Under the pieces are notes generated by a model that was given only the letters and a program-made list of their open reading frames with translations, made no database searches and was not told where the DNA came from. The position numbers and the translations under genes were made by a program. This document shows, one piece after another, positions 1-60,672 of a stretch of 64,000 nt of DNA (its first letter is position 1; each line of letters opens with the position of its first letter). The DNA is from Escherichia coli (GTDB lineage Bacteria > Pseudomonadota > Gammaproteobacteria > Enterobacterales > Enterobacteriaceae). Where the stretch lies: NCBI GenBank assembly GCA_025336685.1, contig GCA_025336685.1_4717.1; one strand, written 5' to 3'.

Positions 1-2127
1 AACGTTCAGTTGATGATACAGAATCCTCAACGCACGGTTACCACCAATGGGATACTTCTCGAAGTTGGTCGCAATAGGAATCGCTGACGGCTTATCGGTC
101 GCATAGATGCTTTCAGTGATGCTATCCACCTGTTTTGGATTGTTTGCATAGTCCATAAAGACGCTCGCAAACCACCCACCAGCAAAGGCGGTAACTTCGC
201 GATGTTCAGATTCACCACAGTAACGAGTTGGTTGCTCTTTACCAGGAGAACTGTACTTATCGCTATTACTGAGTTTCGACGGTAATCCGTGCGCTTGCAG
301 TTTAGGAATACCCACCGCTGACCAATCGTTCGCCGTCTTCTCCAACATCATGATGTACGTGTCACCGATCGCAATATCGTTCTTGGTTGTCCGCCACTGC
401 CCAGAACGTCCGCGGTACCGTACAGGACCTTTCTTCAACGGGAACTCACGAATCAGATTCTCCATACGTTCTGAACCCGCTGCGATACTGTCTGTCGGGA
501 TATAAACTTCCGTACCGTGGCGTTGTACGTACCGTAAATGATCCCATTTATCCTCATCCGTGATACAGTATTTTTCAACAACCTGTTCCACGAACTCAGG
601 ACTGACGATATAGTAGTAGCGCATCAGTGTGTTCCAAGCGGTCTCCAGATCGCCTGCATCCATCACTGGTTTCAGCTCACGCATGATCTGGTCACCAACA
701 CCGTTGATGTATGGCGCATTAACACGACTTAAACTCATCCTTTTGATTACCGTGCTATCGTCAAACATAAAGTCCGCAACGTTACCCCATTGGTCAACCG
801 GCATTTCATCGTCTTCCATGATGTCGGTTACGACGAATTTATCACCCGCCATACCCGTGAATTTAAACCCGATACCTGGAACAACGTCATACGTGTACGT
901 GATGGTCACACGCCAATCATCGAGATTCTCTTTACGGTAATCGCGGGTTGGTAATACATGACGTAGCTGTCCGTTAGGATTGCGGATATCAATACCGTGT
1001 TCAGCATCAGCCAGGTTCAACCACCACATCACCGTTTGATGATGACGTATCGGCGTACCAACGCGTTCACGTTCGTACTTACGAACAGCATCCTGAATTC
1101 GGGTGTAAAGCAAACCGATTGCGTTTTCATATTTCAGGAATTGACGATACGGAGGACGCATCTTCTCTTCCATCATAATCGCACGCTCGCGGGCTTGACG
1201 TCCAGAACGACGATGTCGATCGCTGACAACATCGATATCCGTTACACGCGCATTCGGTTCAGCGTAAGTGAGATCATCGTAAACATAATCCACGCGCTGA
1301 AGGTTACACGTCATCATGTCAACAACGCTGAGGATAGGATCTATTTCGCGTGTTGCTGCAAGCAACCCATCCTTACGAATGCGCTCACCGTTCTCGGGTA
1401 TTGCTTGGTATACTTCGTCATCACCGTAGAGATTGATTGGGTATCGCGATTTACCTGATGTAATTGTTCGCTTCTCAATACCAGTACTGGTGAAATGCTT
1501 CAATACACCGCGACGGGCAACGCCACCATCTTCAATACACTGGTAGAAGCTACCGAAACACACCTTGCAATCGCGACCGTAACCCCACTCACGTGTTTCT
1601 TGATTGATCGCTGGGCTTTCCATCAAACGAGAATATCGTGGTACGATCTGGCCTCGACGAAGGGAATGGAACAAGTTGGTTGGTCGAAAACGGAAACCGT
1701 ACTGCTGATGCATGATGTGATGCTCGGGCACTTCAAGCAAGCGTAGCTCGTGACGGTTACCATCCTCTTGGTTTTCATACAGCACGTAATGCATCGTGTT
1801 TGTTTTGATGCTGTTTGCTGTATGCCCTGGTTGAAACCGCGGAATGATATCTATGATGCGAGATTCAACTGGAAACTCTACTGACCAAGTGTTTTGTCCG
1901 TACTGGTATTCAATCCCCGTCGTTAGTCGGGACGGCTTCGCATCTTTGATAACCAACGCTTGGCTAAGATGTCCACCAAACATCGCAGCGCGCTGTGCTG
2001 AGTTATAATGCAATAGCCCGTTAAGTCCAGTCCCTACGCCAGTATACTCCTGTTTAATGGGAATGATTTTACCTTCAGCGATTGCCTGCTTCACAGATTC
2101 ATAAAGAGGTTTTTCTTTATAATGCAT
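1..2127 (-). CDS. RNA polymerase beta-like subunit, C-terminal fragment (partial; 3' end lies beyond window start)
   Basis: Unlisted minus-strand ORF, manually translated, starting at ATG 2125-2127 with AGGAAG RBS 6 nt upstream and open to position 1. Contains LLHYNSAQRAAMFGG (cf. beta FLEHDDANRALMG), GMAGDKFVVTDIMEDDEMPVD (cf. GDKMAGRHG...IEDMPYDENG) and GESEHREVTAFAGGW (cf. GEMEVWALEAYG). The plus-strand ORFs 538-1746 inside it are antisense artefacts. Confidence 0.65.
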   Translation of the reverse strand, partial: MHYKEKPLYESVKQAIAEGKIIPIKQEYTGVGTGLNGLLHYNSAQRAAMFGGHLSQALVIKDAKPSRLTTGIEYQYGQNTWSVEFPVESRIIDIIPRFQPGHTANSIKTNTMHYVLYENQEDGNRHELRLLEVPEHHIMHQQYGFRFRPTNLFHSLRRGQIVPRYSRLMESPAINQETREWGYGRDCKVCFGSFYQCIEDGGVARRGVLKHFTSTGIEKRTITSGKSRYPINLYGDDEVYQAIPENGERIRKDGLLAATREIDPILSVVDMMTCNLQRVDYVYDDLTYAEPNARVTDIDVVSDRHRRSGRQARERAIMMEEKMRPPYRQFLKYENAIGLLYTRIQDAVRKYERERVGTPIRHHQTVMWWLNLADAEHGIDIRNPNGQLRHVLPTRDYRKENLDDWRVTITYTYDVVPGIGFKFTGMAGDKFVVTDIMEDDEMPVDQWGNVADFMFDDSTVIKRMSLSRVNAPYINGVGDQIMRELKPVMDAGDLETAWNTLMRYYYIVSPEFVEQVVEKYCITDEDKWDHLRYVQRHGTEVYIPTDSIAAGSERMENLIREFPLKKGPVRYRGRSGQWRTTKNDIAIGDTYIMMLEKTANDWSAVGIPKLQAHGLPSKLSNSDKYSSPGKEQPTRYCGESEHREVTAFAGGWFASVFMDYANNPKQVDSITESIYATDKPSAIPIATNFEKYPIGGNRALRILYHQLNV

Positions 2128-2146
2128 AGGACTTCCTATTATCGAA

Positions 2147-2512
2147 TTGAGGTACGTCATGTCTAACACGCCCCTGAACGACTTTCTTAAGACAAACCCC
2201 GATGACCTCATCCACGATCTTGATTTCAGGAACGTTGTTGAGATGCATCTGGAATATTTCAAAAATGCCGGACTGGTCTCTACGATAGACATACCACCCG
2301 AACGCGCCTACGAATTCGATGGTAACTTTTATGGATTGTGTCGTGTTCTGCTCGGCGAGGGCAGTGAATCAATGCACTGGATCACCATGAGACTCAATGG
2401 TTATCGCGACCCTACGGAATACACCGCCGATGTTCTAACCATGAAGATTGTCGATACAAGCGCAATCAACACATTAAAACAACAGTACCGCACAATCCAC
2501 TACAGCGCTTAA
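2147..2512 (+). CDS. hypothetical protein (121 aa, TTG start)
   Basis: ORF convergent with the 2578-3858 gene and followed by a GC-rich hairpin; no recognisable motif. Confidence 0.35.
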   Translation: MRYVMSNTPLNDFLKTNPDDLIHDLDFRNVVEMHLEYFKNAGLVSTIDIPPERAYEFDGNFYGLCRVLLGEGSESMHWITMRLNGYRDPTEYTADVLTMKIVDTSAINTLKQQYRTIHYSA

Positions 2513-2517
2513 GATAA

Positions 2518-2546: not shown

Positions 2547-2577
2547 CATTTATGCCGTCGTTCGTTGGCTTAGCACA

Positions 2578-3913: not shown

Positions 3914-5500
3914 TTAGAAGTTGCCTTTGGTAGTTACCGCATCCACCAGGTTAAACAAATCAACACTCAGCTTGTAAACCTCCTGCTGACTACGGTTGAG
4001 CAGCGGGCTGTACGCGGATGGGTTGATGTTCGGCATGGTGTACGGAATCGGTGAAGAGCCGTCAACGCTGATCTTGAACTGGCTGTCCAGGAACAGGTTA
4101 ATCGCACCACTCACCATAACCGCGTTCGGGTTGTTACCCAACATGGAGGGCAGGATATTGGTAATCATGTCGGAACGCATCTGTTCAGCAGCGCGGTTAC
4201 AATCATACCCTTTAATGAACGGTACAGCGTCAGTAACCGCAACCGCCCATTGCCCAGGCATGATGCCTAGTTCTGGATGGCCGTGGTTATCAGCAATGAA
4301 ACGGAACGACTCCAACATGCGATACGTCATCGCAGCAGGCATCATCGCAGCAAGTGATGAACAATACAGCGTTGGATAATCGATAACGTCCCAGCTCTGG
4401 CTATCGGTCGGCATCCAACCAAACTCGGTGGTTGCCGATGTACCGCGACGAGCTTCCACGTACGGGAACAGTCTTAAGACATCACGGACATGCTCGCCGA
4501 ACATCCGTTTCATATCAGCCCAACTCAGGCTACCGCTGAAGGCGAATCCCTCATCACGCATAATCGCACCGAATACCGGATGCGCAACCAACGGTTCTTC
4601 ACGAACAGCTTGAGCTGCTTCTACGTAAATATCCTCATTCTCTGCGCTACCTGGATGAGACCCGCTTTCGTACGTCTGACGAATAGCCCCGACGTTATCG
4701 AAGGCTTTTCTTAGATAGATGGTTGGGATGTTCGTATCAGCACTCGCTGGTTTGATTTTCTCCGTTGCGAAACACATTGCTGCTTCCACACCACGAAAAA
4801 CCGGTTCCGGTTGCGATTGATAGGAAGAGCGATGAACCACATCAGCGTAGGCTGGATCGAACTGCTGCATCACGTTCTGCATGGCTGGGTCCATGAACTG
4901 GTTATCAAAACCACCATTGCCTACCCAACGTGCAGTCGACGCATAAGTCAGCGTATCCTGAACACGAGTACTGAACTGAACATCACGATTAACAGGGTCG
5001 TATGCGCCAGTCAAAAGGTTCGTTGCGTCCATCGGGGTCGCGCGAACGATTTGCTTACCGAACATATCCGTTGTGGTTGTTTCGGTTACCTGGATTACAT
5101 TCGTGAAGAAGAACACCAGTTCGTTCGGCAGATCGATGGCACGTGTTGTAAACGCATCGAGGCTTACCGAATGGTCGGTGTATCCAGAAATGTAATGGAC
5201 GCGCTTGGTTCCTGGTGCAAGGGCCAAGGATTCTTCCACAGCCATCATGAAATGGAAACGACGTGTGCCCCAACCATTCGCAATCTCCGAAACCCCCTCA
5301 GGTTCTGCAGACTGCTGTAACAAACCGGTTGCAAGCTTATTGATTGCTGATGGGGTTGTTGCCGTACCGAACTTCGTCGTGTTAATAAAGTCTTCGATGC
5401 TACGCATGCTATCTGCATGGAATCGTAGTGGACGACGTTGTACGTTGTTGTACGGTGCGGTTTCAACCATCAGTATTTCACGAACATTCATCGGGATCAT
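3914..5500 (-). CDS. hypothetical protein (528 aa)
   Basis: Long ORF starting 1 nt after the stop of the upstream 5502-7088 gene, so probably co-transcribed from the promoter at 7184; no motif recognised. Confidence 0.55.
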   Translation of the reverse strand: MIPMNVREILMVETAPYNNVQRRPLRFHADSMRSIEDFINTTKFGTATTPSAINKLATGLLQQSAEPEGVSEIANGWGTRRFHFMMAVEESLALAPGTKRVHYISGYTDHSVSLDAFTTRAIDLPNELVFFFTNVIQVTETTTTDMFGKQIVRATPMDATNLLTGAYDPVNRDVQFSTRVQDTLTYASTARWVGNGGFDNQFMDPAMQNVMQQFDPAYADVVHRSSYQSQPEPVFRGVEAAMCFATEKIKPASADTNIPTIYLRKAFDNVGAIRQTYESGSHPGSAENEDIYVEAAQAVREEPLVAHPVFGAIMRDEGFAFSGSLSWADMKRMFGEHVRDVLRLFPYVEARRGTSATTEFGWMPTDSQSWDVIDYPTLYCSSLAAMMPAAMTYRMLESFRFIADNHGHPELGIMPGQWAVAVTDAVPFIKGYDCNRAAEQMRSDMITNILPSMLGNNPNAVMVSGAINLFLDSQFKISVDGSSPIPYTMPNINPSAYSPLLNRSQQEVYKLSVDLFNLVDAVTTKGNF

Positions 5501-5501
5501 T

Positions 5502-7088
5502 TTATTTTTTTCCTCTTAAATTTACTACATGTTCATTTAATCGAACAACTAATTGCACAAGCTGCTGACGGATATCTGCTGGGCAAAGCATCAATCCTTT
5601 ACGATCAGCTGGGACTTTCTCAAGGATTTCCGGACCTGCTGCGGAAACATCCCAATCCCATTCACAAAACGCATCAGCCACCATGTTAATACCGACAACC
5701 GGTAAAGTTGTACGTTCATCTTCATACATGGCATGCGGATACAATTTATTGACGGTAATGACCTCCTGTGGTTTTAACTGATGGATAATCTGGTAAACGT
5801 CGTCGCGTTTAACCTGGATACCTACGGTCAGCGCAGCCAGTTGAGGAAAACCCCAATGGTCTAATAAGCACGCTGCGATTGCTAACGCTTTTGCCTGATG
5901 TACGGCTTCAATCGGTGATAGACTTCTCGCTGGAAGATGACTATCAAGCAACCATTGTGCCAATGCTCGGCATCCACGGTTGATTGGTTTTAACTCAATG
6001 CTGTCATCATGTTTAGCGTAGGTGTATCCGTCGTAACGTTTTGCGATACGCGCATACATGTCTTCAACTTTACCGTAAGGTGCTGTTTCGTCGACGTCAT
6101 GCAACACCCGTTCCATCTGGGTAAGATACGCGATATCAAGGATGAGTACGCGTGGTGAACGTTTATCTTTCACCATCAACGCATCAATCACGCCTTGACT
6201 GTCTTCATCTTGCGCATTCCCTCGCGGCGTTTTCTCGCGAATCGGTCCGCTGAAACGTCGTTCCGTACAAAGGTTATTCACATAGCTAAAGATCAACGTT
6301 ACCAGGTGCGTACAACTCACCAACACTCCATCTTTAACGACAGGCTGTACGGCTTGGTCCAAATCGCGTACTGCGAGACGGCGAACGATGGCTTGTGAAC
6401 GCAACCAACCAGGTACTTTCTCTGTCGACATGTAATCCACCGTCATCGACAGCGTGATCTTTTTATCGCCTGTCTGTGCACGGATATAATCTTCCAGTCG
6501 GTCGTAAGCAGCGATATCATGAATGCGTGTTTTATACATCAACGACATAGCCACTTCTTCTTTACGTACCGTCCCGTACGTTTTCCCTGCGTCAATCAGA
6601 AACTCCGCCCAAATCGGCACCATCAGCCGGACGTAGATCGCTAACGCCGTTAACTCAACGTAATCGTTTCGTAAATAGGTTTTCTCAGGTATGTCATCCT
6701 CACCTAATGTTGTTTTCATGTCTGGCGGTAATTTTACCCAACCTGGGGTATTACACAACGCCAGAATCTCTTCATAGACGATCGGTTTGTAAATTTCACC
6801 GACGGCGCGGCTCAACTCCTCCATTTGTTGCTGTGGAGCAATGTAGTTATCCATCGCTTCACGTGCTTTAACGAACCCTTCGAAGATGTCGTCGATTCGA
6901 CGTGGGTTCTTTTGTTCTATCCAAGCGAGATACTTATTAATCTCTCGCATCTGATTGCTAGCCATATCCCCATCAATCTTGATGTAGCCTTGGCCTGAAA
7001 ATTCCACGGCACGTCCGTCACGATGTTTGATGAGATAGTGATCCAGCTTTTCTTTGCCTTGCGTCGTAATGACGGGCACAATGTGCAT
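5502..7088 (-). CDS. hypothetical protein (528 aa), first gene of a promoter-driven operon
   Basis: Long ORF about 96 nt downstream of a TATATTAC-type promoter motif. Confidence 0.55.
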   Translation of the reverse strand: MHIVPVITTQGKEKLDHYLIKHRDGRAVEFSGQGYIKIDGDMASNQMREINKYLAWIEQKNPRRIDDIFEGFVKAREAMDNYIAPQQQMEELSRAVGEIYKPIVYEEILALCNTPGWVKLPPDMKTTLGEDDIPEKTYLRNDYVELTALAIYVRLMVPIWAEFLIDAGKTYGTVRKEEVAMSLMYKTRIHDIAAYDRLEDYIRAQTGDKKITLSMTVDYMSTEKVPGWLRSQAIVRRLAVRDLDQAVQPVVKDGVLVSCTHLVTLIFSYVNNLCTERRFSGPIREKTPRGNAQDEDSQGVIDALMVKDKRSPRVLILDIAYLTQMERVLHDVDETAPYGKVEDMYARIAKRYDGYTYAKHDDSIELKPINRGCRALAQWLLDSHLPARSLSPIEAVHQAKALAIAACLLDHWGFPQLAALTVGIQVKRDDVYQIIHQLKPQEVITVNKLYPHAMYEDERTTLPVVGINMVADAFCEWDWDVSAAGPEILEKVPADRKGLMLCPADIRQQLVQLVVRLNEHVVNLRGKK

Positions 7089-7330: not shown

Positions 7331-8119
7331 TTAGAACGCTAAGCCATCAAAGGCTACAGACGGATCATCGTCGTCATTTGCGCTTGGTGCATCCCAACGG
7401 GTATCAGGGGCAGCTGGGGCCGAACGTGATGCGTTAGAGTTACCGTTGTACTGGCCGTTACCAGCATTACGGTTACCGCCGCCGTTATTATTGTTGCGAT
7501 TATAGCTGTTGTTGCCATTACTTACGCTACGGCTCTCACCATCGAAATTGGTTGCGAGGATGCTTGGCAACACAGCACGATGGATGCGTACGAATTCCAA
7601 TGCACAAAGCGGAGAAACAACCCCGATCTGCAACGGTTGCCCAGACTCATCAACCAGAGAGTGGAAACGTGGTGGTTTGAATACGAACTGGATGTTTGGT
7701 TTCTGGTATGCTGTTACAGCGATGTATACCGAACCATCATCATTCTTACCAACCCATGTTGTACTTTCGGTAATCTGTTTCTTCTTACCTGGGTTATTGC
7801 GATCATCAATAACCTTTTCGTTCTTCATCGCAAAGCGTTGACCTGGTTTACCCTTAGCAACCTGCTCAAGGATCGCAAGCAGGTTGTAGAACGCGTATGA
7901 ACTCATGCGTGCCCAAATGCTTTCAGCGCGACCCTGCTGGTCTTTACGACCTGTATAAACCGTGATACGCGGTTGATTCTTAGCAACGCTAATTTTCAGT
8001 GAGGGGACCGAATTGCCACCCTCAACTTTTTCGTCCGCCCACAGTTTCCAGTTGTTGTCGTCGTAAGCCGTAGGAATAATGTTTCCTTGTGGTTTACTAC
8101 CCGAATTCCAATTGCTCAT
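7331..8119 (-). CDS. hypothetical protein with N/G-rich linker and acidic C-terminal tail (possible ssDNA-binding protein)
   Basis: C-terminus is NGNNSYNRNNNNGGGNRNAGNGQYNGN...DDDDPSVAFDGLAF, resembling the flexible linker plus acidic tip of SSB proteins; the N-terminal domain is not recognisably an OB fold by eye. Confidence 0.3.
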   Translation of the reverse strand: MSNWNSGSKPQGNIIPTAYDDNNWKLWADEKVEGGNSVPSLKISVAKNQPRITVYTGRKDQQGRAESIWARMSSYAFYNLLAILEQVAKGKPGQRFAMKNEKVIDDRNNPGKKKQITESTTWVGKNDDGSVYIAVTAYQKPNIQFVFKPPRFHSLVDESGQPLQIGVVSPLCALEFVRIHRAVLPSILATNFDGESRSVSNGNNSYNRNNNNGGGNRNAGNGQYNGNSNASRSAPAAPDTRWDAPSANDDDDPSVAFDGLAF

Positions 8120-8192: not shown

Positions 8193-9026
8193 TCAGCGGA
8201 ACATGTCCAACAGAAAACGTTTTGCGAAGGGGTCGCGTAACTGGTTGACACCAAAGCGTGTACGGTCTTCCGTTGTTAACGGATTCCACTGACTCTGTTT
8301 CGCAAGATCTAACAGCATCCTTTTTATTTTCACCGGTCCGCTGTTAAACTGTACGGCTTGGTCACCGAACGTTCCCAATGTCATCTTTGTAAATGGGAGG
8401 TTCGCAACCTCTGGACGATCCCCACCAGTAAGTTTGGTTGACCACTGATGTTTTCGTTTCAAAGTTCCGGTATGACTCTCTACCAAAATAAGTTCACCAA
8501 AACCGGTTCTTGCCAACAAGTCAGAAACATAGTGCGTGGTGATATACGATGTTTTGGTTATCGTGGGTAATTTACAATCCATCGATTCGATATTAGGGAG
8601 TCGATCTACAGACGCCATCAACCCACGATAAAGTGTAGCGAGTCCTTTTTGTTTTTCGGTATGTGGCTCCTTGTGTATAGCGTGCGGATAAACACGCTTT
8701 ATTGATGCATAGGTTGGCGCATATATCCGCAAACGAATATGGGGAACGAGTTCATTCACCAACTGCCTTAGCTGCAGCAACTCGTTTTGAAAATCCCCCG
8801 TTATCATCGATAATGGTAATTTATGTTGCTCGACGTCTTCAAAGCTTTCAACAAAATTGCGCGCTAAAGTACGCAGGTTGAACAACCAATCCATCGGTGT
8901 TTCTGGCTGTTGCTGTACTGCTGATAATGTTGCTGACGTCCCCACCGATAAAGGATAATCACCTAGCGTGCGGGCGTACATATCGCTCATACCCCACAAC
9001 TCCTTCTTATCATGGCAACGTATCAA
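8193..9026 (-). CDS. hypothetical protein (277 aa)
   Basis: ORF in the same-strand operon; no motif recognised. Confidence 0.5.
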   Translation of the reverse strand: MIRCHDKKELWGMSDMYARTLGDYPLSVGTSATLSAVQQQPETPMDWLFNLRTLARNFVESFEDVEQHKLPLSMITGDFQNELLQLRQLVNELVPHIRLRIYAPTYASIKRVYPHAIHKEPHTEKQKGLATLYRGLMASVDRLPNIESMDCKLPTITKTSYITTHYVSDLLARTGFGELILVESHTGTLKRKHQWSTKLTGGDRPEVANLPFTKMTLGTFGDQAVQFNSGPVKIKRMLLDLAKQSQWNPLTTEDRTRFGVNQLRDPFAKRFLLDMFR

Positions 9027-10152
9027 GCCAAGCAGAAACCTTTAAGGCATCAACGTTCGGGTATTTATTACGGATGCGTTCGACCAACAAACGCTTAACG
9101 TTGTCCTTTGTCAAGTCCCCACCCTTCTCGATAACGTTATTGACAAAACTGTTCTTTAATAGCGACTGGTTGTTCTTGGCATCCGTTTTAATTGACCAGA
9201 CAAAACCTGGATACAAAGAAGGGATAGAACGAAACGTTTTCGCTGCGTCGTCTTCCTTATCGCAGCGTATTCGAATATGATCGCCCTTCTTCAATGGAGC
9301 CAATTCCCGTTCCAACACACGGACAATTTCATCTCCAACAAGACCATGCAGTTTTATCGTCTTGTAGACATCTGCTTTCTTGTTCTCAACAAATTCCCAT
9401 TGGTCGTTAAACGATTCTGTTAACGTATAACGGAGGTACCCCTTTGGACCTTCTTCGCCATGCGACAAGCGACCGAACGAACCGCCAACCATGATACGTC
9501 CTTTCTGGGATTGTAAGTGAATATGTCCGCTCACAATCCATCCCTGGGTCTTCTCCACCATTGCGTTATACGCATCACTGCTATGAACACATGTCGCTTT
9601 TAACGCTTCTGGTGGAAGCTGATATTCGAACGCACCGTGCATCAGAATGAAGTCCGGCGATCCCTTCTCATCAATAAGTCGGTTCACGGCTGACAACGTC
9701 ACATCCGGGTCGTGGCTGTAGTTATCTGGAAGATAAAGTACTTTTAAACCAAAGTCTTCATCAACCATGCAGAGGTCATCGTAATAACGAACTTTCGCTC
9801 CTATCTCCATGACCTCGTTCTGCTCAACGAACCACTGGCTTTGCTTCTGGTCGTGTAAATTGGTACCCTCAAGAAAGATCAATGTAATATCGTGTTTTCT
9901 CGCATACCGTAACAACCAGGTACCCCAAGCACGAACAGCAACCACGTCACTCGTTACAAACGTCGTAATACGATCGAAGACATCACCACTGAACGTAATC
10001 ACGTCAAGCAGCGCAGGATCTTCTTTGGTGATGTAATAACGTAGCTGGTTAATCAGGTTTACTGTTGGTGTTTGACGATGGATAAAGTGAATATCCGACA
10101 AATTGATTCCACGTAATACCCCAGGCGTTTTATTTCGACTGAAGTCTCGCAT
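9010..10152 (-). CDS. calcineurin-like metallophosphoesterase (Mre11/SbcD-like nuclease candidate)
   Basis: Ordered phosphoesterase motifs: LSDIHF (D-x-H), GDVFD (GD), GTNLHD (GNHD-like), MHGAFEY, SGHIHLQ (GH-x-H). Confidence 0.6.
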   Translation of the reverse strand: MRDFSRNKTPGVLRGINLSDIHFIHRQTPTVNLINQLRYYITKEDPALLDVITFSGDVFDRITTFVTSDVVAVRAWGTWLLRYARKHDITLIFLEGTNLHDQKQSQWFVEQNEVMEIGAKVRYYDDLCMVDEDFGLKVLYLPDNYSHDPDVTLSAVNRLIDEKGSPDFILMHGAFEYQLPPEALKATCVHSSDAYNAMVEKTQGWIVSGHIHLQSQKGRIMVGGSFGRLSHGEEGPKGYLRYTLTESFNDQWEFVENKKADVYKTIKLHGLVGDEIVRVLERELAPLKKGDHIRIRCDKEDDAAKTFRSIPSLYPGFVWSIKTDAKNNQSLLKNSFVNNVIEKGGDLTKDNVKRLLVERIRNKYPNVDALKVSAWLDTLP

Positions 10153-13365: not shown

Positions 13366-14004
13366 TTAACCTAATTTACCACCGGCGATATTGGTGAAAT
13401 CTTCGCCATCAGGAACTTGCAGTAGAATACGTGCCATGTCCCAGTTGGTTAATGTGATTGCTTTATCATCGATACTCAGTTCTGGTAGGTCGAGTTCATG
13501 ATCATCAAACTCGTAGGAAATACTCCACGTTTCATCTGTTTTAGGATCCGTCATCAATACACCGTCTGTCACACGCATGTAGTCCGGATGCAGTTCATTA
13601 CTGAACGTACTGAACGGATCGGTGTAACATTCAGCATACCCCTCGATCTGCTGACGCTGTGCCTTCGTACGTAATTCAGGGCACGCCATGATCAGTTGTC
13701 GAGATATGCCGTTTGCAGCACGGAAGTCTTCCACAGTGTTACATGGCATAACCACATCGTCATGGAAGATGTTCTCCGATTGTCTCAACAGCGTCTTACG
13801 GAGTTCAGCATAGTTTATCTGATTGAATGCATCGAACGTTGCTAACGATTCAGCGTAAAAATGCTTTACGTGTTCGCTTGCGCCACCGAGACTATTCATC
13901 AACTTATGGCCGTACTCCATAAAGCTTTTATCGAGACCGGAGGACATTTCTCCGAACCTCAGTGCACGATAACTGTCTCGTCCACCTGTAAATATTTGCG
14001 CCAT
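13366..14004 (-). CDS. hypothetical protein with RNA polymerase beta 'region I'-like motif (possible small beta C-terminal fragment)
   Basis: N-terminus FTGGRDSYRALRFGEMSSG resembles the universal beta motif GG...RFGEME. Gene starts 13 nt after the beta-prime exon-2 stop with an AGGAGG RBS. Confidence 0.4.
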   Translation of the reverse strand: MAQIFTGGRDSYRALRFGEMSSGLDKSFMEYGHKLMNSLGGASEHVKHFYAESLATFDAFNQINYAELRKTLLRQSENIFHDDVVMPCNTVEDFRAANGISRQLIMACPELRTKAQRQQIEGYAECYTDPFSTFSNELHPDYMRVTDGVLMTDPKTDETWSISYEFDDHELDLPELSIDDKAITLTNWDMARILLQVPDGEDFTNIAGGKLG

Positions 14005-14019: not shown

Positions 14020-14257
14020 TTAGCAATGGTTGTTAGTTGCTTCTATTTCATCAAGATACGGTTCTACGTCATCGCCCTCCACGAATTCGTTGAACCAACA
14101 GTCAATGGTAGAAATAACCGGTGACTGGTGTTCACATTTCTTAGATACCTTAAAAGGCACGTTATTATCCATCATACCGAGTTCGGGTCGAAAACGCCCG
14201 AAATGTTTCGCAGTCCAAATGTCTGGGACGATATGGTTGTTCATCGCGTCCCCATCG
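14020..14257 (-). CDS. RNA polymerase beta-prime-like subunit, exon 2 (begins DGDAMNNHIVP...)
   Basis: The reading frame of listed ORF 14020-14244 extends upstream to ...C GAT GGG GAC GCG ATG, encoding DGDAMNNHIVPD (cf. beta-prime NADFDGDQMAVHVP). Joining to exon 1 (ending ...GAC TT) restores NADF-DGD in frame. Confidence 0.7.
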
Positions 14258-27660: not shown

Positions 27661-27724
27661 GTGAACTCCTAATTTAATATGTATTTAACGTACAATGAAT
27701 CTTTCTTTGCTAAAGGGGTGACCC

Positions 27725-50462: not shown

Positions 50463-51173
50463 TCACCCCCTCAGAATCGCTTCTGTTTCGCTGATCGTAT
50501 CCGCAGGATAAACCAAACTACTGTCGATTGCGTTATTCACGTAACCACCCATTAAGTTGGTGATGGTGTTTGTACCACTATCGATAATGTTTCGTAATCC
50601 GATGTCGATGGCTTTTAAGGTGCTGCGTTCCTCATCCGAAAGTAAACGCCACGCTCGACGACGATCGTTGGGGTCACGTGTGGTGATAGAAGCCAGAACA
50701 GAATAGATGCTGCTGTCTGCGTTCAGTTTAACACCCGCCAATTTCGCTGACGTGTAGAGCAGCTGATATTTTTCTTTTTCGGTATACCACCATGGCACTT
50801 TACCGAGCGTATAGATCTCGTTATACATCAGCCATGGGAAAGAGTTTCGCATCACGACATCGGTTGACACCAACACCGTGTCGCCGGGAAGAAATACAAA
50901 TTCGTAAAACGGCTGACCATCCATGGTAATCTCACGGATGTCAGATGGGTCGATATGGAGCTGAGTCAATGCGTGGCTGACACCATACTGACCATCGGGA
51001 AGAATAATCGGGCAGCACGCACAAACCCGGTTCTCACTCCCGATGATAGATAAACCCAATCCCTCGTAACGGACGGGCGTCAGAATCGAACACCCGCCAC
51101 GAGTAACAACAGATTTATCTTCTTGTATGTCCCAGTCCGCAAGCACCGCAGCACCGTTGCGGACAAGCGCCAT
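50463..51173 (-). CDS. hypothetical protein (236 aa)
   Basis: ORF starting 1 nt after the stop of the upstream gene. Confidence 0.5.
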   Translation of the reverse strand: MALVRNGAAVLADWDIQEDKSVVTRGGCSILTPVRYEGLGLSIIGSENRVCACCPIILPDGQYGVSHALTQLHIDPSDIREITMDGQPFYEFVFLPGDTVLVSTDVVMRNSFPWLMYNEIYTLGKVPWWYTEKEKYQLLYTSAKLAGVKLNADSSIYSVLASITTRDPNDRRRAWRLLSDEERSTLKAIDIGLRNIIDSGTNTITNLMGGYVNNAIDSSLVYPADTISETEAILRG

Positions 51174-52930: not shown

Positions 52931-53006
52931 TCACTTTTCCTTTTAATGTCAGAGCATCGCATTCTTGACGTACGTCAAGAAGGTACTGCGTTCAGCGAAA
53001 TAAACG

Positions 53007-53030
53007 AGCAGGGGCATGAAGCCCCCTGCT
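53007..53030. terminator. hairpin AGCAGGGG-loop-CCCCTGCT with T-rich flanks
   Basis: Inverted repeat immediately after the 53032-54255 stop. Confidence 0.5.
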
Positions 53031-53031
53031 C

Positions 53032-54255
53032 TTATTTAGCGTCGTTAAAGTAAATATCAACAGCTCGTTCCGTTGCGTAGAGGAGACCAAGATTCACAGT
53101 CCCAACCACTTCCGGTGAACCGATGATACGGTTAGCGATACTGGTGCCACTGAAGATAGCATCAAGGGTGTGCCCGTCTTCGGTTTTGTTCACACCATGA
53201 CCCACGGAAGAGACAACGGATTTCGCTTGTGCTGCGAAGGTACCCTTATCACCCATCCCCGCACCAAGGTCGTAACGCATGAAAATACGGATGGCGATCT
53301 GGTTCTCGCCTAACGGATTACCGTCTATTCTCACGTTACTGTTGTTGATACGCCCCGTCGTTGCTTCATTGAGTTTCAGTTCCTTGACGCGTTTAGCTCG
53401 CGCTTTATCTGCGTCACCGACGAGCGCCGCCATGGTTTCACTCATATCCTCAATCTGAGCGCGGTACAGCACATCGATCTGTACAACTTCACCATGAACG
53501 TCAGCACGTGGGTTATACTGACTCATACGACGTAATGCTTCAACGGCTTCCTGACTCTCATCACTCAGATCAGTTGCGATCGGTTCTTCCAGTGTTGCAA
53601 GAATAGTTCGAGGTTCAACATGATCGCCGATTTTTACGAGACCACGAATGTTGAGATGGGCGTCAACAATGAGCGTGCGGCTCTTAATCGATGGTGTTAC
53701 GAGACGATCGGCAAGATTGTCGAAGATATACGAACTGTCCTCGTGAGTCTCTGGAATATCCAGAATACCGACAAGAGACAGAACACCTGCGCGCCAAACA
53801 ACCTGACCTGGGTTCCACCAGTCGCGTTTAAAATAAAGACGATGGAAAACTACCACATCTTGATCCTTAACGCGATCCCCAACTTTATAATCGGTAATGA
53901 GGTCATGCGGATAATACTTACCTGGTCCTTTCCCGATTATCGTACCGAGTTGGAAAACCTCTTCTCCTAACTCTGGATCATCGTATTGTATCGTAAGCGC
54001 AGTTTTGGTGACCTTCTTCACAACACCATCGCCTTGGGCGGCAGCTGCGAAGAGTTTACCAACGCGATGCGCGATAACGGTCTCGCCACCAGTACGCCAT
54101 GGTTGTACATCGTAACCTTCAGCAGCAATCATGCGGTTGTGTTGGATGCCTATAAATACGAGACGCTTTGGCGGAATCCAGCAAAATACATTTACTGTGC
54201 GTCCGGATTGTTCAGATAAGGTCGTTAATCTTATCCCGGAGGCGATGATAGGCAC
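53032..54255 (-). CDS. RNA polymerase beta-like subunit, middle segment (probable 3' exon)
   Basis: [23 protein letters not shown] resembles beta [40 protein letters not shown]...[13 protein letters not shown] resembles GDKMAGRHGNKGVIS...GVPSRMNIGQILE. The listed start is GTG, and the frame stays open a few codons upstream, consistent with an exon. Confidence 0.6.
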   Translation of the reverse strand: [407 protein letters not shown]

Positions 54256-54483
54256 ACCGCCTCCCGCTTACGCTCTCACGTAAGAGCAGACTATATCACA
54301 TCTCGTCTTAGGCTTGTTTTCACAAGTCAAACGGTGCTTCTTCAGCACCTCAACGAGAGTTCACTTCTTCCCAGCGCATCCAGCGCCATTCTCTTATCCA
54401 AGGAGAATGCCTCACTCGAGGGGTACAGGGGGATGAATCCCTTAGTCGTTGAACCGTCACCCTAGAACGTTTCACAACGATCC

Positions 54484-55695
54484 TTAGGCGATTGGCTGCG
54501 GATTACCCTTGGCCTGCGGACCACGAACTTTTGTCGCGGTCAACTCTTCATTTTTAAAGCCTGCTTTACGAGCAATACGTCTCGCTTCTCGCACGTCTAA
54601 CGTTTCCGTTTCCGCTTTGGCTGAAGGCAGCATTGGGCGTCCTCGCAATTCAATGAATCTCGTCCATACGTCACCGTATAAACGGACCCGCTCTTTGTAA
54701 ACAGAATAGTAAATATAACGTTTTCCGTCAGGGAATTTAGTCATCCCATCGGACTTCAAACGGTAATTGAGTAACGTAGTAGATATACCCATTTCTTCGG
54801 CGCAATCAACGGCTGAAAGGTACAATAGCGGTACATCATTTTCAGGAATGACGACAATAGCACGTTTGTTGGTTGTCTTCTCCAACTCCAGGATACTATC
54901 TTCGACTTCCCGCCACGGCGTCTCATCAGTAACCCATTTAACTTGATAACAGCCATTAACGACAGGTTGGTTCTTGTCGTTAACGTACATCGACGCAGTG
55001 GGTAACTTAACACCAATGTGATTAGCGAATTCAGTCAATGATTCGAAAAGATGAATCTCTTTTGTTATCGTTGACCTTGCAATCACGCCCTTACTCCCCG
55101 TATCCGTCAACGTTGCTAACTCGTATTTGGTAGGAATACGCCACGGTTCATCGCCGTAATCTTTGCGGTACTGCTTACGTTCAGGAAACGCTCGCTGTTT
55201 ACCTCTATAGACACGATGATGAATGAAGTCGATATTCACACCAAGATCGCGTGCCGCTTCCGTCATGGATGGATATCTAGTTACAACACCGGTGTCAACA
55301 TCACGAACCTGAATAGGTTTACCGTAAGCAGCAATAGAACGTTTACGCATGTTCATAATGCGGGCATGCTGATTGTTCTCTTTCTGTGTAACCCATTCAA
55401 GATTGTCATTCTCTGTGTTACCGTCGGGATCAAGGTAGTTATTAAGTCTGTTGCCGTCCTTGTGGTTCACATGGAGCAAATGCGCATCATCGATGTTACG
55501 GAACGTTAACATTAGAAGTCTATGCATGGAACGGTAAACCAATGTTCCATCGTGACCTCGAAACGAATAACGATAATACCCAGCAATGATGATGGGCAAA
55601 TATTCAAACTTCGATTCCTTGTTACGCAATGTTCCATCTATGGATATCTCCAGGAACGGGAATTCCGGTACGGTCTTAAATACCTTCTCACTCAT
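54484..55695 (-). CDS. HNH homing endonuclease (intron-associated)
   Basis: HNH motif HRLLMLTF...HVNHKDGNRLNNYLDPDGNTENDNLEWVTQKENNQHA; helix-turn-helix-like repeats; located between the two beta-like segments. Confidence 0.85.
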   Translation of the reverse strand: MSEKVFKTVPEFPFLEISIDGTLRNKESKFEYLPIIIAGYYRYSFRGHDGTLVYRSMHRLLMLTFRNIDDAHLLHVNHKDGNRLNNYLDPDGNTENDNLEWVTQKENNQHARIMNMRKRSIAAYGKPIQVRDVDTGVVTRYPSMTEAARDLGVNIDFIHHRVYRGKQRAFPERKQYRKDYGDEPWRIPTKYELATLTDTGSKGVIARSTITKEIHLFESLTEFANHIGVKLPTASMYVNDKNQPVVNGCYQVKWVTDETPWREVEDSILELEKTTNKRAIVVIPENDVPLLYLSAVDCAEEMGISTTLLNYRLKSDGMTKFPDGKRYIYYSVYKERVRLYGDVWTRFIELRGRPMLPSAKAETETLDVREARRIARKAGFKNEELTATKVRGPQAKGNPQPIA

Positions 55696-55735
55696 TGACT
55701 ATATTCCTCTTGTGCAGTGATATTAACTACACTTT

Positions 55736-55750
55736 CGTAATATAGCCTTA
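55736..55750 (-). promoter_or_regulatory. phage promoter, minus-strand attaaggCTATATTACG, inside the putative intron upstream of the HNH ORF
   Basis: Plus-strand gtaatata at 55737-55744, about 42 nt upstream of the HNH start. Confidence 0.55.
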
Positions 55751-55770
55751 ATTCTGTTTACATTGAAGCC

Positions 55771-58700
55771 TTAATCATCTCTATCAGCAGCAGGTACTGC
55801 AAGTGCTGATGTACTCATTATTGACGAGCTACCATCCGTTTTCTCGTCGTAGGGTTTCGTTTCACCGTATACAGACACAATGTTTGCGTTAGGTGCGAGG
55901 TAAGCAGAAATACCTACATCCCCACTATCCTTCGTACCTTCGGATACAACACCAATGTCCGACTTGTCGTATTCACGATCGCGTGCGCGTCGAAGCGATG
56001 TCTTTGAACGCCCCCCGATACCGGTCATCGTTGCTTCTTCACCCTGCTTGATATCCAGCATCGGGTTGGTTTCATCGATCACGATGGAAGCGCTGTCGTC
56101 GAGAATTTGGTTCCAGACACTCACTGGACTGATTGAGATTTTCTGGCGGTTTCCTTGACTGCTGTTCTCGTTTTGACGAATAGCGCTAACCAGGTCCTTA
56201 TACACCAGTTCGGCGAACTTATCGTACGTTTTAAAACGTTGGTAGTTCACATCGTTCGTGTTAGGTGCCCAGTCATCCAGAAGCAGTTCAACAGCACGCA
56301 GTAACAACATGGCGAAATCGGTAGGTTCTCCCATGTTCTGTAGCAACGTACGGCTCACCGGATCGATGAAAAGACGCTCCATGAGTTCAAGTTCGCGTAA
56401 ATGGCGAACCTTAAGTCCAGCACCATCGACAACGTTAAAATAGATATCTCGATTGTCAAAAGCACCGCGAGCGTAACCGATGTAGTTACGGTACTCGTTG
56501 AACCCACCCAACAGCAACGTCGTCATGCGATCGTCTTTACTGAAGATCAAACTTTCGTCGTCAAAGCTCACCGCGAATTCATCGGGTGCTAGACCCATAC
56601 GAGAGCCGCGAGGTACCGTACGATAGTTCGCTTTAAGGTGTTCTAATAACGGGGTAAGCCCACCCAGATAACTTAGAACAACACCGACCGGAATACGTAC
56701 ACCCATGAATTCAAGATCGGCGGCTTCGATCGGCATCTTAGCCGCATTGATACCGAAGAAATCAGGGAACGTCCCTACAGGTGTTGGTGTTTGTCCTGAC
56801 TGACAGATATAGAGCTGATTGCGTTCATCGATTGCTAAGAATTCACCCAACGTGTTACGTGCAAACGTCAGGAGCCCTTCGGCTAACTGTTCGTTGAACC
56901 GATCTTCCCCAATGAACTCCGGCAATGTCTTTATATCGAGACGTATATCCCAATCAGCGAATTGGATTTGGGTATAGTTGCGTGCAAGCACTGCGAAGTA
57001 ATACGGGACTTTGACAGCCGGATCAAAGACGTTACCGCGTTTTAACGTGGTTAAGGGTGAGGACTTATCGTAATACATCGCCGTAAGTTGACGTGTTAGC
57101 CAACGACCCGCATTATTAACGACGCGCTCTGAACGTTTAACAAACACCTTACCGTAGGCGGTACTCAATGCAACTTCGGATGACGATACCTTTCTAATAG
57201 GTTTATCGACGCGTTGTTTACGCATCCGGTACTTGATGCCGTTAACGACATAAATGCCGTCCTTACGAACCTTCGGTAACATCACCGGGAACGTGGTCGG
57301 GACACCGCCTACGGGGGCCAGTTTAATCGTGATGACTTGATAATCCCCCATCACGTCAACAACATCTTCGACTTTATATCCCGTGACTGGGTAACCTGCC
57401 TGCTGTACCGCAACAACAGCAGCTGCGATGTCCTTTTGCATTACGTGTTCGACGTAATGTTTATCCCACACCGCAAGCGTCGATTTACATAAGCTCTTAT
57501 CGACGATAACGTCCGCTTCCGGCATAACCTTTGCGGGAGCTAATTTCGCGGCTTTTGGTTTAACTTCAACATACTCAGCAAGTGTTAATCCAGAACCGTC
57601 GGGTGCTTCGATTTCATGGATGGCGTCAGCGTTACGCATCGCTGCTTTATATTGGACGCCACTTAACTGCCCCGCATCCGCCAGATCGCCCGCGCGTACC
57701 AACACCGCATCCGATAACGACTGAATATACTCACCGTGTGTTTTTGGTAACGTTGTCGCGTCAAAGACATCAACCTTTTCTTCTTCGGTATCGTCAGTAA
57801 CGACTTCGAAGAGATCGTCGGTAATGTCCTGATCTTCATCAGGTTGGAAATCCGGTTGTACTTCTACCCCGGGTACTTCACGGACATCTTCGAACGTGCG
57901 TTCTACAACGGCGTTCCATGCATCAGCGTCATCGTCTTCATCCGACCCACCGACCAACTCCGCTTCTAACTCATCGGGGTCAAGAACAGTGGCCAGATCC
58001 TCACCGTTAGGAAGCACGACGTCACGATCGTCGTACTCCGCATCCGGGTTGTCGGTAAGAATATCTCGCTCTTGACGAAGAACCTGTTCCTCTTCTTGTT
58101 TCTGTTCTTCTTCATTCGCGCTCTGCGACCACAAACGTGTTACCGCCATCATCCAACGACGTTGGAAGGTTTCAAGTGTCGTTTTGTCGAGTTCTTCCCC
58201 TTCCTTTACAAGCCCGGTACGCCATTCCTCCAGCAGGCCGAGATTCAACGTAAAGAAGTACACACCGTCTGTAAATACAACGTTAAGCTTATCCAGCGTG
58301 GCCCTGTCTAACGAAGCCATCGTGCTGTTCTCACGATCGGTTCCCAACCAGCGGAAGAAGTCAAAGAACGACAGCTCCTCCGGTGTGGCGAAATTCATGA
58401 GGTTGTTACGGGTCGGTGCCTGTTGTGTGGTACGCATCAACGAAATCTTCGGCAATGTTGACGGTAAACGGAACAACAAAAAGTGTTGACGATCGCTTTG
58501 TTGTGCGATTTCGTTGGCTTTCGACCAAATTGTTTTACGTACGTTGAACCATTCATCATACCAACGGGTGAGCGTTGGACGATAGATGTACATGTGGTTA
58601 AGATGCGCGTAGTTAGCAACGATCTGAGCGTTGATGTTTTTCTCCACCGTACTTAGATCGGTAACCAAACGAAAACGACGATGCGATGCACGATAATCCA

Positions 58701-58980
58701 ATTTCGCTCGTGGAAGTTGGAATCGTTGATCGCGTCGAGGTGCGCCTTGTTTGGTTGCGAGATCATCAGCAAACGAAATCCATAGTTGAGCATTTTCTTT
58801 ACTCAGCATGTATTCGTTTTCTGGAGGACCTATCAATGAAGGATCCGTTGCGGTGTAATGATAGACAGCATAACGCGGCAGCTGCAATAGCTGCACTAAA
58901 CGTAATCTTGGTGATAGTAGCTCTTGGTAGCGTCTGACACCGAACTGTCGGTAGTAATCAAGGTATTTAAGTTTTGCCAT
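55771..58980 (-). CDS. RNA polymerase beta-like subunit, N-terminal segment (probable 5' exon), 1069 aa with acidic insertion
   Basis: C-terminus SEGTKDSGDVGISAYLAPNANIVSVYGETKPYDEKTDG aligns with beta region D ([37 protein letters not shown]); contains a D/E-rich insert. Confidence 0.65.
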   Translation of the reverse strand: MAKLKYLDYYRQFGVRRYQELLSPRLRLVQLLQLPRYAVYHYTATDPSLIGPPENEYMLSKENAQLWISFADDLATKQGAPRRDQRFQLPRAKLDYRASHRRFRLVTDLSTVEKNINAQIVANYAHLNHMYIYRPTLTRWYDEWFNVRKTIWSKANEIAQQSDRQHFLLFRLPSTLPKISLMRTTQQAPTRNNLMNFATPEELSFFDFFRWLGTDRENSTMASLDRATLDKLNVVFTDGVYFFTLNLGLLEEWRTGLVKEGEELDKTTLETFQRRWMMAVTRLWSQSANEEEQKQEEEQVLRQERDILTDNPDAEYDDRDVVLPNGEDLATVLDPDELEAELVGGSDEDDDADAWNAVVERTFEDVREVPGVEVQPDFQPDEDQDITDDLFEVVTDDTEEEKVDVFDATTLPKTHGEYIQSLSDAVLVRAGDLADAGQLSGVQYKAAMRNADAIHEIEAPDGSGLTLAEYVEVKPKAAKLAPAKVMPEADVIVDKSLCKSTLAVWDKHYVEHVMQKDIAAAVVAVQQAGYPVTGYKVEDVVDVMGDYQVITIKLAPVGGVPTTFPVMLPKVRKDGIYVVNGIKYRMRKQRVDKPIRKVSSSEVALSTAYGKVFVKRSERVVNNAGRWLTRQLTAMYYDKSSPLTTLKRGNVFDPAVKVPYYFAVLARNYTQIQFADWDIRLDIKTLPEFIGEDRFNEQLAEGLLTFARNTLGEFLAIDERNQLYICQSGQTPTPVGTFPDFFGINAAKMPIEAADLEFMGVRIPVGVVLSYLGGLTPLLEHLKANYRTVPRGSRMGLAPDEFAVSFDDESLIFSKDDRMTTLLLGGFNEYRNYIGYARGAFDNRDIYFNVVDGAGLKVRHLRELELMERLFIDPVSRTLLQNMGEPTDFAMLLLRAVELLLDDWAPNTNDVNYQRFKTYDKFAELVYKDLVSAIRQNENSSQGNRQKISISPVSVWNQILDDSASIVIDETNPMLDIKQGEEATMTGIGGRSKTSLRRARDREYDKSDIGVVSEGTKDSGDVGISAYLAPNANIVSVYGETKPYDEKTDGSSSIMSTSALAVPAADRDD

Positions 58981-58983
58981 GGG

Positions 58984-60672
58984 TTAGGCTCCACGAGGTC
59001 CCGTTAAGTTGCGTAATAGGAACGCAACCGTATCGTAACCAATATCAATGTTGAATTTATTTTTACCACTTACCCAGAAAGCTCGCTTCTTGTGCGAGTT
59101 GGTAATTTCGTCAATGGCTTCCATGGAATAAAGAACGTTAACCGAGACCGTATCACCATCAAAGTCCCCGCCAAGTCCGGCGAGGTATGGGGCAGGGACA
59201 ATAGTCGTTTCTACGAACGAAGCATTAGGTAACCAGTCAGGGTATTCCCATGCGATAAATCGTTCATCCGTTATTGGTTCCCAGTTACTATCCAGTTCGG
59301 TTTTCGGTTTTGCGGCGACGGTTGTACGCGCATAACAGGTTAACGGGATAACGGATTGCATACCCGATACCGGATAACGTGTTACCATTGCAGCCAGGTT
59401 ATTCCAGTACTTATATCCGGCGATGTACACTAATTCGGTATACGTGATGGGGTGAACATCCGCACCAGGTTTATTCAACATTTCTGGGGGTAATTCACTC
59501 ATACCACGGAACAGTCGAAACGAATCATTGTTCACATAGACGAGGCAAAGATAACGTCCATTAACCATGATAGGTTCGTTACGCACGCCTGGATCGCTTA
59601 AGGTGTTCAATAAACGTTCTATTCCGTCCCATGTCGTAAAGTCATCGATGGTGTCTGGATCAAGCGTGACGCGTTCACGTTCCATCGTTTCGGTATCGAT
59701 AAGTTCAACTTCTGTAACATCACGGACAAATATTTCCTGCAAAATCCCCGTACGTAACGCATGTTGCGTCACGGGTAGGGCGGCTTTGCTCATCTGGTAT
59801 AACCCTAACTGAACTGCAGTACAGGAAGGCTGGTTGGGCGATCCTAGTACCTCCGTTGTGGGGTTAATTGCCGAAATAACGTTACGGGTTGAGTTCCAAA
59901 CACGACGTGAGCCGAACTTCCCTTGAAAGATCCCTTTCTTACCTTGGAACATATCCAACAACAAAGCGTAGATATCGTTAAATGTTCTCTGTAAGCTCCA
60001 GCGTTGGCCGTCGTAAACGGGATCGGAATAATCTTTTAATCCATCGGGGACGGTGTTAGAAATTGCAAGGAAACGACGATACAACTCCGTGATTTCTTGC
60101 TCGCTTTCATACCCGCCTTCTTTTACTTCTATTTCACGTAAGCCCGCAGGTAAAACCAGTAAGTGACGGGTCATCGCTTTGAACATGTTCTCTTCGACAA
60201 CTTTAATTCGTAGCTCTCGTTGAGCTGAACCCGTTGAAACGAACTTGATATCCGCGACGTGTTGTGCAAAGAACCCGTACCCTGTCTGTCCTGTTAACGC
60301 ATCAGACGCAACGAAATCGCGTTGTTCAGGATCCCACCGAGCGTACGCCTTCCCCGACATGATATCACCATAGAGGTGTTTTAATCGAATGAGGCGGTCG
60401 TAAATGACAGGATGCAGGATTTCAACTTTGCATTCAATCACCGCAAATCGACGGTCTCGATCTTCACTACCTGCACTACCAAAGATGGTGTAAGAATAGA
60501 AACCATCATCGTGGAAATTACCGGTGCTTGGGTCACGAATGCTCATGCTCGTGATCTTGGGGAGAAAACGTAACTGTTGTTTATCGAGGTGTAAAATACT
60601 AATATTAAACGGCTCTCTGACTTTAGCCATGGAGACACTCCTCTTTACCACCACCGGCTGCGGCGGTATCAT
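58984..60672 (-). CDS. RNA polymerase beta-prime-like subunit fragment with catalytic DFDGD motif
   Basis: GGDFDGDTVSVN matches NADFDGDQMAVH; GKKGIFQGKFGSRRVWNSTRNVISAINP matches [27 protein letters not shown]. No zinc finger in this copy. Confidence 0.75.
   Translation of the reverse strand: MIPPQPVVVKRSVSMAKVREPFNISILHLDKQQLRFLPKITSMSIRDPSTGNFHDDGFYSYTIFGSAGSEDRDRRFAVIECKVEILHPVIYDRLIRLKHLYGDIMSGKAYARWDPEQRDFVASDALTGQTGYGFFAQHVADIKFVSTGSAQRELRIKVVEENMFKAMTRHLLVLPAGLREIEVKEGGYESEQEITELYRRFLAISNTVPDGLKDYSDPVYDGQRWSLQRTFNDIYALLLDMFQGKKGIFQGKFGSRRVWNSTRNVISAINPTTEVLGSPNQPSCTAVQLGLYQMSKAALPVTQHALRTGILQEIFVRDVTEVELIDTETMERERVTLDPDTIDDFTTWDGIERLLNTLSDPGVRNEPIMVNGRYLCLVYVNNDSFRLFRGMSELPPEMLNKPGADVHPITYTELVYIAGYKYWNNLAAMVTRYPVSGMQSVIPLTCYARTTVAAKPKTELDSNWEPITDERFIAWEYPDWLPNASFVETTIVPAPYLAGLGGDFDGDTVSVNVLYSMEAIDEITNSHKKRAFWVSGKNKFNIDIGYDTVAFLLRNLTGPRGA

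Follow-up and report, generated by a model that had tools for sequence, protein, structure and literature searches.

The stretch of DNA analysed here (the window, 64,000 nucleotides [nt] in length; NCBI GenBank assembly GCA_025336685.1, contig GCA_025336685.1_4717.1, deposited under Escherichia coli) contains genes of multisubunit RNA polymerases (RNAPs) of the phiKZ type. All positions are given as window coordinates, and all open reading frames (ORFs) flagged in a first-pass annotation of the window lie on its minus strand. In a megablast search with positions 53000-61000, the sole match was Escherichia phage vB_EcoM_Goslar (95% identity), and a blastn comparison of the whole window with Goslar positions 152000-221000 resulted in five colinear blocks of 94.5-95.9% nucleotide identity, which span positions 1-64000 of the window and 153639-218641 of Goslar (NC_048170.1). 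Judged by this similarity, the window is a 64-kb part of a Goslar-like chimallivirus (Chimalliviridae), i.e., of a jumbo phage that infects E. coli and forms a nucleus. The same RNAP genes are found in Goslar in the same order (gp171, gp175, gp247/gp185, gp205, gp207, gp210) and with around 95% nucleotide identity. The window very probably carries three genes of the non-virion RNAP (nvRNAP; beta C-half, gp68-like subunit, and beta' N-half) and three of the virion RNAP (vRNAP; beta' N-half, beta N-terminal and middle part, and gp176-like subunit) of such a phage, with an ORF of 212 amino acids (aa) being a homologue of Imp3 and not a piece of either polymerase. The first-pass annotation had assigned beta or beta' signatures to six ORFs: all six exist at the positions given there and five are related to RNAPs, whereas the 212-aa ORF (13366-14004) shows no similarity to RNAPs. 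The five RNAP-related ORFs make up four genes and not five independent fragments.

Concerning the nvRNAP, the intronless beta C-half (1-2127, minus strand) is the homologue of phiKZ gp71-73 and Goslar gp171, as the beta C-terminal assignment made earlier had it, and its last 14 codons are lost at the left window edge. The ORF is colinear with Goslar 153639-155765, belongs to phrog_3295 (E 1e-178), and matches phiKZ gp71-73 (chain 7OGP_C; phmmer E 4e-85), the beta C-half of the AR9 nvRNAP (7S00_C; E 2e-17), and residues 1063-1241 of E. coli beta. Its equivalent of region I reads RYCGESEHRE. In phiKZ, gp71 and gp73 are split by gp72, whereas the beta C-half in the window is uninterrupted. The second nvRNAP gene (5502-7088, minus strand), which was not among the six ORFs and is devoid of beta and beta' motifs, encodes the homologue of the fifth subunit, phiKZ gp68, which is sigma-like and required for promoter recognition. 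This assignment is based on a phmmer match of residues 23-518 to PHIKZ068 (7OGP_B, 9RJS_B; E 2.4e-28), on membership in phrog_3209, and on synteny with phiKZ gp65-gp73.

The third nvRNAP gene, encoding the beta' N-half, had been described as a zinc-finger-bearing, intron-split gene at 14020-16925, and this description holds. Exon 1 (15670-16925, minus strand; phrog_2987, E 3e-117) contains a zinc finger of the form CxC...CxxC (C57, C59, C72, C75) and terminates with ...GYNADF; exon 2 (14020-14257, minus strand) begins with DGDAMNNH. Between them, a group I intron of 1412 nt (14258-15669, minus strand) is situated inside the motif NADF|DGD. The ORF at 15654-16925 runs a few codons into the insertion and stops after ...GYNADFSFFN, and the frame resumes at 14257. 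Joining position 15670 to 14257 results in a protein of 497 aa, which aligns with the gp55 chain of phiKZ (7OGP_A; E 9e-75) ungapped through NADFDGD. Compared to the solved nvRNAP of phiKZ (gp55, gp68, gp71-73, gp74, and gp123; PDB 7OGP/7OGR), the window thus contains homologues of gp55, gp68, and gp71-73. PHROG scans found neither a gp74-like beta' C-half nor a gp123-like beta N-half among the larger ORFs of the window; these genes are presumably located elsewhere in the genome.

The vRNAP genes are situated near the other end of the window. The beta' N-half (58984-60672, minus strand; 562 aa) is intronless, corresponds to Goslar gp205 plus a short second exon and, by gene order, to phiKZ gp180, and exhibits GGDFDGD at residues 501-507 but no cluster of cysteines, in line with its earlier description as a second beta' fragment with DFDGD and without a zinc finger. 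It was assigned to phrog_2986 (E 3e-179), and a match to phrog_2987, the family of the nvRNAP beta' N-half, was weak and ranked second; it also matches AR9 beta' (E 5e-4) as well as plastid beta'. In Goslar, an intron of 2044 nt containing gp206 interrupts this gene at GGD|FDGD, whereas the window lacks it.

The vRNAP beta gene consists of two exons. Exon 1 (55774-58980, minus strand; within an ORF at 55771-58980) ends with ...AADRDD, and exon 2 (53032-54171, minus strand; within an ORF at 53032-54255) begins with PKRLVF, contains the ED and GDK motifs, and extends through the first part of region H. The group I intron between them (54172-55773, minus strand; 1602 nt), which follows DRDD, and the HNH endonuclease ORF that it contains are missing from Goslar. 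The two ORFs had been read as beta N-terminal and middle fragments; a family profile places them over regions D-H of RpoB, whereas they are not separate fragments but exons of one gene. Exon 1 covers positions 2-1050 of phrog_3148 (E 1e-290), and exon 2 continues with positions 1051-1420 (E 4e-120). The uninterrupted allele is Goslar gp207 (1448 aa), to which the spliced product (...AADRDD|PKRLVF...) is identical at 1426/1449 residues; the predicted peptide spanning the splice junction is ...AADRDDPKRLVF... The profile, built from 12 sequences of the family, matches bacterial RpoB (Thermus beta, E 2.6e-11) and covers region D, regions E/F (HDDANR...ED), and the start of region H (GDK); the aligned segments of profile A2 are GGR, DRDD/HDDANR, ED, and GDK, corresponding to Thermus beta 535-698 and 822-880. 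Upstream of these RpoB-like regions, at around 57750-58130 (residues ~285-410), the N-terminal part of the protein exhibits a long, strongly acidic stretch of low complexity (EEEQKQEEEQ...DEDDDAD...DDTEEE).

The third vRNAP gene (50463-51173, minus strand), likewise absent from the six ORFs and devoid of beta and beta' motifs, encodes the homologue of phiKZ gp176, SPN3US gp244, and Goslar gp210. Its product is 100% identical to Goslar gp210, matches phiKZ gp176 (E 7e-26), and belongs to phrog_2926; a word-indexed homologue search retrieved close relatives only. Proteins of the gp176/gp244 type are described as the fifth polypeptide of the vRNAP (PMC7618050; PMC5105663), with a placement at the C-terminus of beta' that is based on a weak HHpred match (E 0.05; PMC5105663). 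The vRNAP of SPN3US and phiKZ consists of five pieces, i.e., beta N, a small beta C, beta' N, beta' M, and beta' C (gp244/gp176) (Thomas et al. 2016, PMC5105663). The split architecture is the same here: beta N, beta' N, and the gp176-like piece are encoded in the window, and the small beta C (Goslar gp196) and the beta' piece that is left (Goslar gp78) are located beyond it. As an alternative role, the gp176-like protein was considered as the carrier of the bridge helix, and this was dropped, as the literature puts it at the C-terminus of beta'.

The occurrence of two different polymerases of the phiKZ type, one virion and one non-virion, had been proposed earlier and is borne out by both large subunits. 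The beta' N-half occurs twice, and both copies have a catalytic DFDGD of their own. Furthermore, residues 43-302 of the nvRNAP beta C-half align with residues 32-272 of the AR9 beta C-half, and positions 446-708 of the vRNAP beta profile align with residues 12-279 of the same chain, and the GDK segment of region H is present in both; since the two beta segments cover the same part of AR9 beta-C, they are not pieces of one enzyme. One set of genes matches chains of the solved phiKZ nvRNAP (7OGP), and the other corresponds to three of the five subunits listed for the Goslar vRNAP (gp78, gp196, gp205, gp207, and gp210), with gp205, gp207, and gp210 identified in purified virions by mass spectrometry (bioRxiv 10.64898/2026.04.21.720040). 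A single polymerase, with beta and beta' cut into many pieces, would agree with the very weak direct similarity of the paired fragments: head to head, the beta' N-halves reach E 0.07 in BLASTP with local motif matches only, and hhalign of the vRNAP beta profile against the nvRNAP beta C-half was not significant. Because these pairwise comparisons are weak, the paralogy is argued via common third parties (AR9 and the bacterial chains). However, one enzyme would then have to contain two separate DFDGD-bearing beta' N-halves, and its two beta pieces would coincide both on AR9 beta-C and on region H of bacterial beta. Moreover, one set matches the phiKZ nvRNAP chains, and the orthologues that the other set has in Goslar occur in virions. 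We regard the probability of a single polymerase, named at the outset as the result that would overturn the two-polymerase proposal, as close to negligible.

Some results weigh against the assignment of these genes to two RNAPs, at least in part. With the single vRNAP beta sequence, phmmer found nothing relevant in the PDB, such that the family profile was needed. The Pfam models of RNAP domains remained below threshold on the RNAP ORFs (Rpb2_6, 16.5 bits at a cut-off of 23.4; Rpb1_2, 15.7 bits at a cut-off of 25.3). For the gp176-like protein, the RNAP nature would follow from the literature: neither phmmer searches of the PDB, in which no beta' fold appeared, nor a profile of 13 sequences, which had no RNAP match in the PDB, provided a link of its own, hhalign against phiKZ gp74 reached E 0.3, and the AlphaFold model, derived from a shallow alignment, had a pLDDT of 42. 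The two-polymerase reading is nevertheless retained at the high probability given above.

The 212-aa ORF (13366-14004, minus strand) had been interpreted as a fragment carrying a second region-I-like motif (RFGEM) at an unusual split point right next to the beta' gene. Its product is a homologue of the nuclear-import factor Imp3 and part of neither polymerase. Searched with tblastn, it retrieved 90 chimallivirus homologues, among them PHIKZ059 (E 1e-5) and Noxifer gp052 (E 8e-11). The window ORF, phiKZ gp59, and Noxifer gp052 have phrog_3254 in common (E 1.4e-26, 2.4e-71, and 1.3e-65). The ORF occupies a conserved position downstream of chimallin and the nvRNAP beta' N-half, and its product is 99.5% identical to Goslar gp184. 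Imp3 of phiKZ (gp59) is a protein-import factor of the phage nucleus (bioRxiv 10.1101/2024.03.27.586873).

A detached region-I fragment of beta would account for the exact RFGEM, which, with GG.R in front of it, resembles GGQRFGEME and by composition should occur only ~0.01 times per window; it would also fit the location directly downstream of the nvRNAP beta' N-half, and the vRNAPs of this phage group do possess a beta C-terminal fragment of ~220 aa (PMC5105663). Against this, a five-sequence alignment has AGGHL, AGGHL, VYGER, and MGGTR at the position of RFGEM, such that the motif is not conserved in the homologues of phiKZ, Noxifer, pEa_SNUABM_54, and SA002; RFGEM is thus a coincidence. 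The match to phrog_3254, the only family found for this ORF and the one that includes phiKZ gp59/Imp3, begins at residue 29, past the motif, and searches of Pfam and the PDB (the latter even at E 10) yielded no match, RNAPs included. The genuine small C-terminal fragment of the vRNAP beta is represented by Goslar gp196 (224 aa; phrog_3233; Goslar 228757-229431). Its region I is degenerate (SQPEMQATLG), it has no relationship to the 212-aa ORF (BLASTP E 1.4), and its gene is situated outside the window, ~11 kb past the right end. The nvRNAP beta C-half has its own region I, as given above, and Goslar gp184 is not named as a vRNAP subunit (bioRxiv 10.64898/2026.04.21.720040). A polymerase fragment at this position is thus highly improbable, and with the Imp3 assignment both the unusual split point and the argument from two distinct region-I-like motifs, which depended on this ORF, fall away.

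The ribozyme core of the nvRNAP beta' intron (15281-15660) matches Rfam RF00028 with 50.3 bits (E 8e-10; gathering score 50), and that of the vRNAP beta intron (54267-54709) matches the same model over its full length (E 4.7e-11). At the nvRNAP beta' junction (15670|14257), U is the last nucleotide of the upstream exon and G that of the intron, and in the vRNAP beta gene the U/G rule is satisfied by one junction only, 55774|54171. Once spliced, the two junctions would read GAC TT|C GAT GGG and GAT GAT|CCA AAG. A search for the guide sequence (P1) found GAGUCG (6 nt) as a plausible site 50 nt into the nvRNAP beta' intron. Both introns interrupt the most conserved codons of their genes, and insertion in highly conserved codons is typical of homing introns. 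Less favourable to splicing are the score of the vRNAP beta intron, which at 49.4 bits falls 0.6 bits short of the Rfam gathering score, and the guide-sequence search in this intron, which found no convincing pairing.

The score just below the gathering threshold would also be compatible with genes that are truly split or dead, i.e., with free-standing HNH insertions whose flanking ORFs are separate polypeptides or pseudogenes, and in both genes the reading frame of exon 1 is closed by a stop codon after a few codons of the insertion. However, both insertions comprise the whole group I core (model positions 1-253), their ends comply with the U/G splice rule, and their removal brings highly conserved motifs back into frame. 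Furthermore, phiKZ gp55 is likewise interrupted at the nvRNAP beta' site by an HNH gene, gp56, and the gp55 chain in 7OGP is a fusion of PHIKZ055 and PHIKZ056.1 across this same site. For the vRNAP beta site, an intron at the same position is documented in PhiPA3 (PMC11620839), and the same intron-containing allele occurs on 11 independent public contigs. We consider split or dead genes very unlikely and treat both insertions as group I introns within intact genes.

Each intron contains an endonuclease ORF. In the vRNAP beta intron, the ORF at 54484-55695 (minus strand; 403 aa) is of the HNH/NUMOD1 type, with a NUMOD1 match of 34.3 bits, a sub-threshold HNH_3 match of 16.8 bits, and membership in phrog_59 (E 5e-38). 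Among phage records, the best E-value was obtained for PhiPA3 gp210 (36.5% identity, E 5e-47), and the insertion site equals that of the PhiPA3 gp210 intron, after two conserved aspartates. The identical endonuclease sequence was found on 11 public (Logan) contigs, with the same exon context at the four places shown; among these four loci, the spacing between the endonuclease gene and the exon 2 end varies by 19-41 nt. The corresponding predicted target sequence in the intron-less Goslar gp207 is GTAGACCGTGACGATGGAAAACGTCTGG. The exons of window and Goslar are ~95% identical except around the insertion, where identity falls to 63-77% in ~120 nt upstream (55774-55900) and ~30 nt downstream (54140-54171), the differences being mostly synonymous. 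This pattern resembles the trace that co-conversion would leave when an intron homes from a more divergent donor.

In the nvRNAP beta' intron, the endonuclease ORF (14265-15248) has an HNH_3 match of 25.6 bits in Pfam and belongs to phrog_59. This intron is common to both phages: between window positions 14247-15296 and Goslar 167849-169281, ribozyme core and exons are ~95% identical, whereas identity between the HNH proteins is as low as 29%, and the phage collection contained no closer relative. An HNH protein this dissimilar beside a ~95% identical ribozyme core suggests that the endonuclease may have been exchanged, i.e., that its gene was replaced within a conserved intron. In the Goslar gene itself (167848-169654), there seem to be two introns with a micro-exon of 13 nt, CGACGGTGACGCT, between them, which encodes DGD of NADFDGD. 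The putative second intron of ~355 nt, situated 13 nt farther downstream, is devoid of ORFs, exhibits a weak partial match in Rfam (16.7 bits, E 0.3), and is not present in the window; the annotated start of Goslar gp185 (MLNTTMNNH) would then fall within it.

The system most similar to the vRNAP beta intron is that of PhiPA3, in which a group I intron with the HNH gene gp210 follows the two conserved aspartates of vRNAP beta (gp211/209), as in the window. The PhiPA3 endonuclease nicks phiKZ gp178 and thereby confers a competitive advantage (Birkholz et al. 2024, Science, PMC11620839). There are also differences: PhiPA3 belongs to another genus and infects another host, and the window endonuclease is longer (403 aa) and only ~36% identical, its activity and target being predicted. 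Since the intron-less counterpart Goslar is ~95% identical to the window phage, homing rather than killing may dominate here. Considering the vRNAP genes together, each of the two phages possesses an intron that the other lacks, in beta in the window and in beta' in Goslar. We regard it as possible, albeit somewhat less probable than its opposite, that the two phages carry reciprocal mobile introns in essential vRNAP genes, whose endonucleases, if active, would attack or convert the intron-less alleles of the partner at co-infection. If true, this would be a natural two-way version, in chimalliviruses of E. coli, of the intron-endonuclease interference between PhiPA3 and phiKZ.

Concerning the remainder of the window, synteny with phiKZ gp54-gp73 extends over its left 17 kb, and the neighbourhood is phiKZ-like (chimallin, beta' N-half, Imp3, ..., ChmC/Imp6, gp68, Imp1, gp70, beta C-half). 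Chimallin is encoded at 17018-18913 (Pfam PF25677, E 7e-28). The phage-nucleus factors Imp1, Imp3, and ChmC/Imp6 sit among the nvRNAP genes in the same order as in phiKZ: the homologue of Imp1/PicA (phiKZ gp69) is situated at 3914-5500 (BLASTP E 7e-17 against phiKZ gp69) and that of ChmC/Imp6 (phiKZ gp67, Goslar gp176), assigned by synteny, at 7331-8119, followed by a gp66-like gene and an SbcD-like nuclease at 8193-10152. DNA polymerase, PhuZ, terminase, and tail sheath are also encoded in the window. The PhuZ gene, expected at around 26682-27662 (minus strand), exhibits three indels (-1, +1, and -2 nt) relative to Goslar gp234 within ~65 nt (26800-26870); its ORF terminates at 26827 and encodes 277 instead of 326 aa, with the conserved C-terminal ~45 residues running on in another frame, which reflects an error of sequencing or assembly, or else a genuine loss of the PhuZ tail. 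Furthermore, 188 nt of Goslar (180320-180507, around gp236) are missing from the window at position 26334.

By extension from work on phiKZ and Goslar, the vRNAP would be assembled, packaged into the capsid, and injected together with the DNA to transcribe the early genes; the nvRNAP would be an early product that enters the chimallin-bounded phage nucleus by import and transcribes the later genes, with the gp68-like subunit standing in for sigma and providing promoter recognition. Splicing would restore the reading frames of the two interrupted RNAP genes, and the intron endonucleases would be expected to nick intron-less alleles of co-infecting relatives, resulting in homing or interference. 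Expression, splicing, packaging, and endonuclease activity are predictions from the sequence, which tempers the functional side of this reading.

Owing to their two split polymerases, chimalliviruses do not depend on host transcription. The reading of two polymerases is correct, yet it is already known for phiKZ and Goslar, and a relative of Goslar adds nothing conceptual to it. The practical value of the analysis is a corrected annotation, concerning ORFs that are exons of one gene, an Imp3 gene that had been taken for an RNAP piece, and the further subunits. The intron content is the only new detail. This intron polymorphism is a modest lead: window phage and Goslar constitute a natural pair with and without the intron at the vRNAP beta site studied in PhiPA3 and phiKZ, now in an E. 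coli system, and this pair could be used for testing homing against interference.

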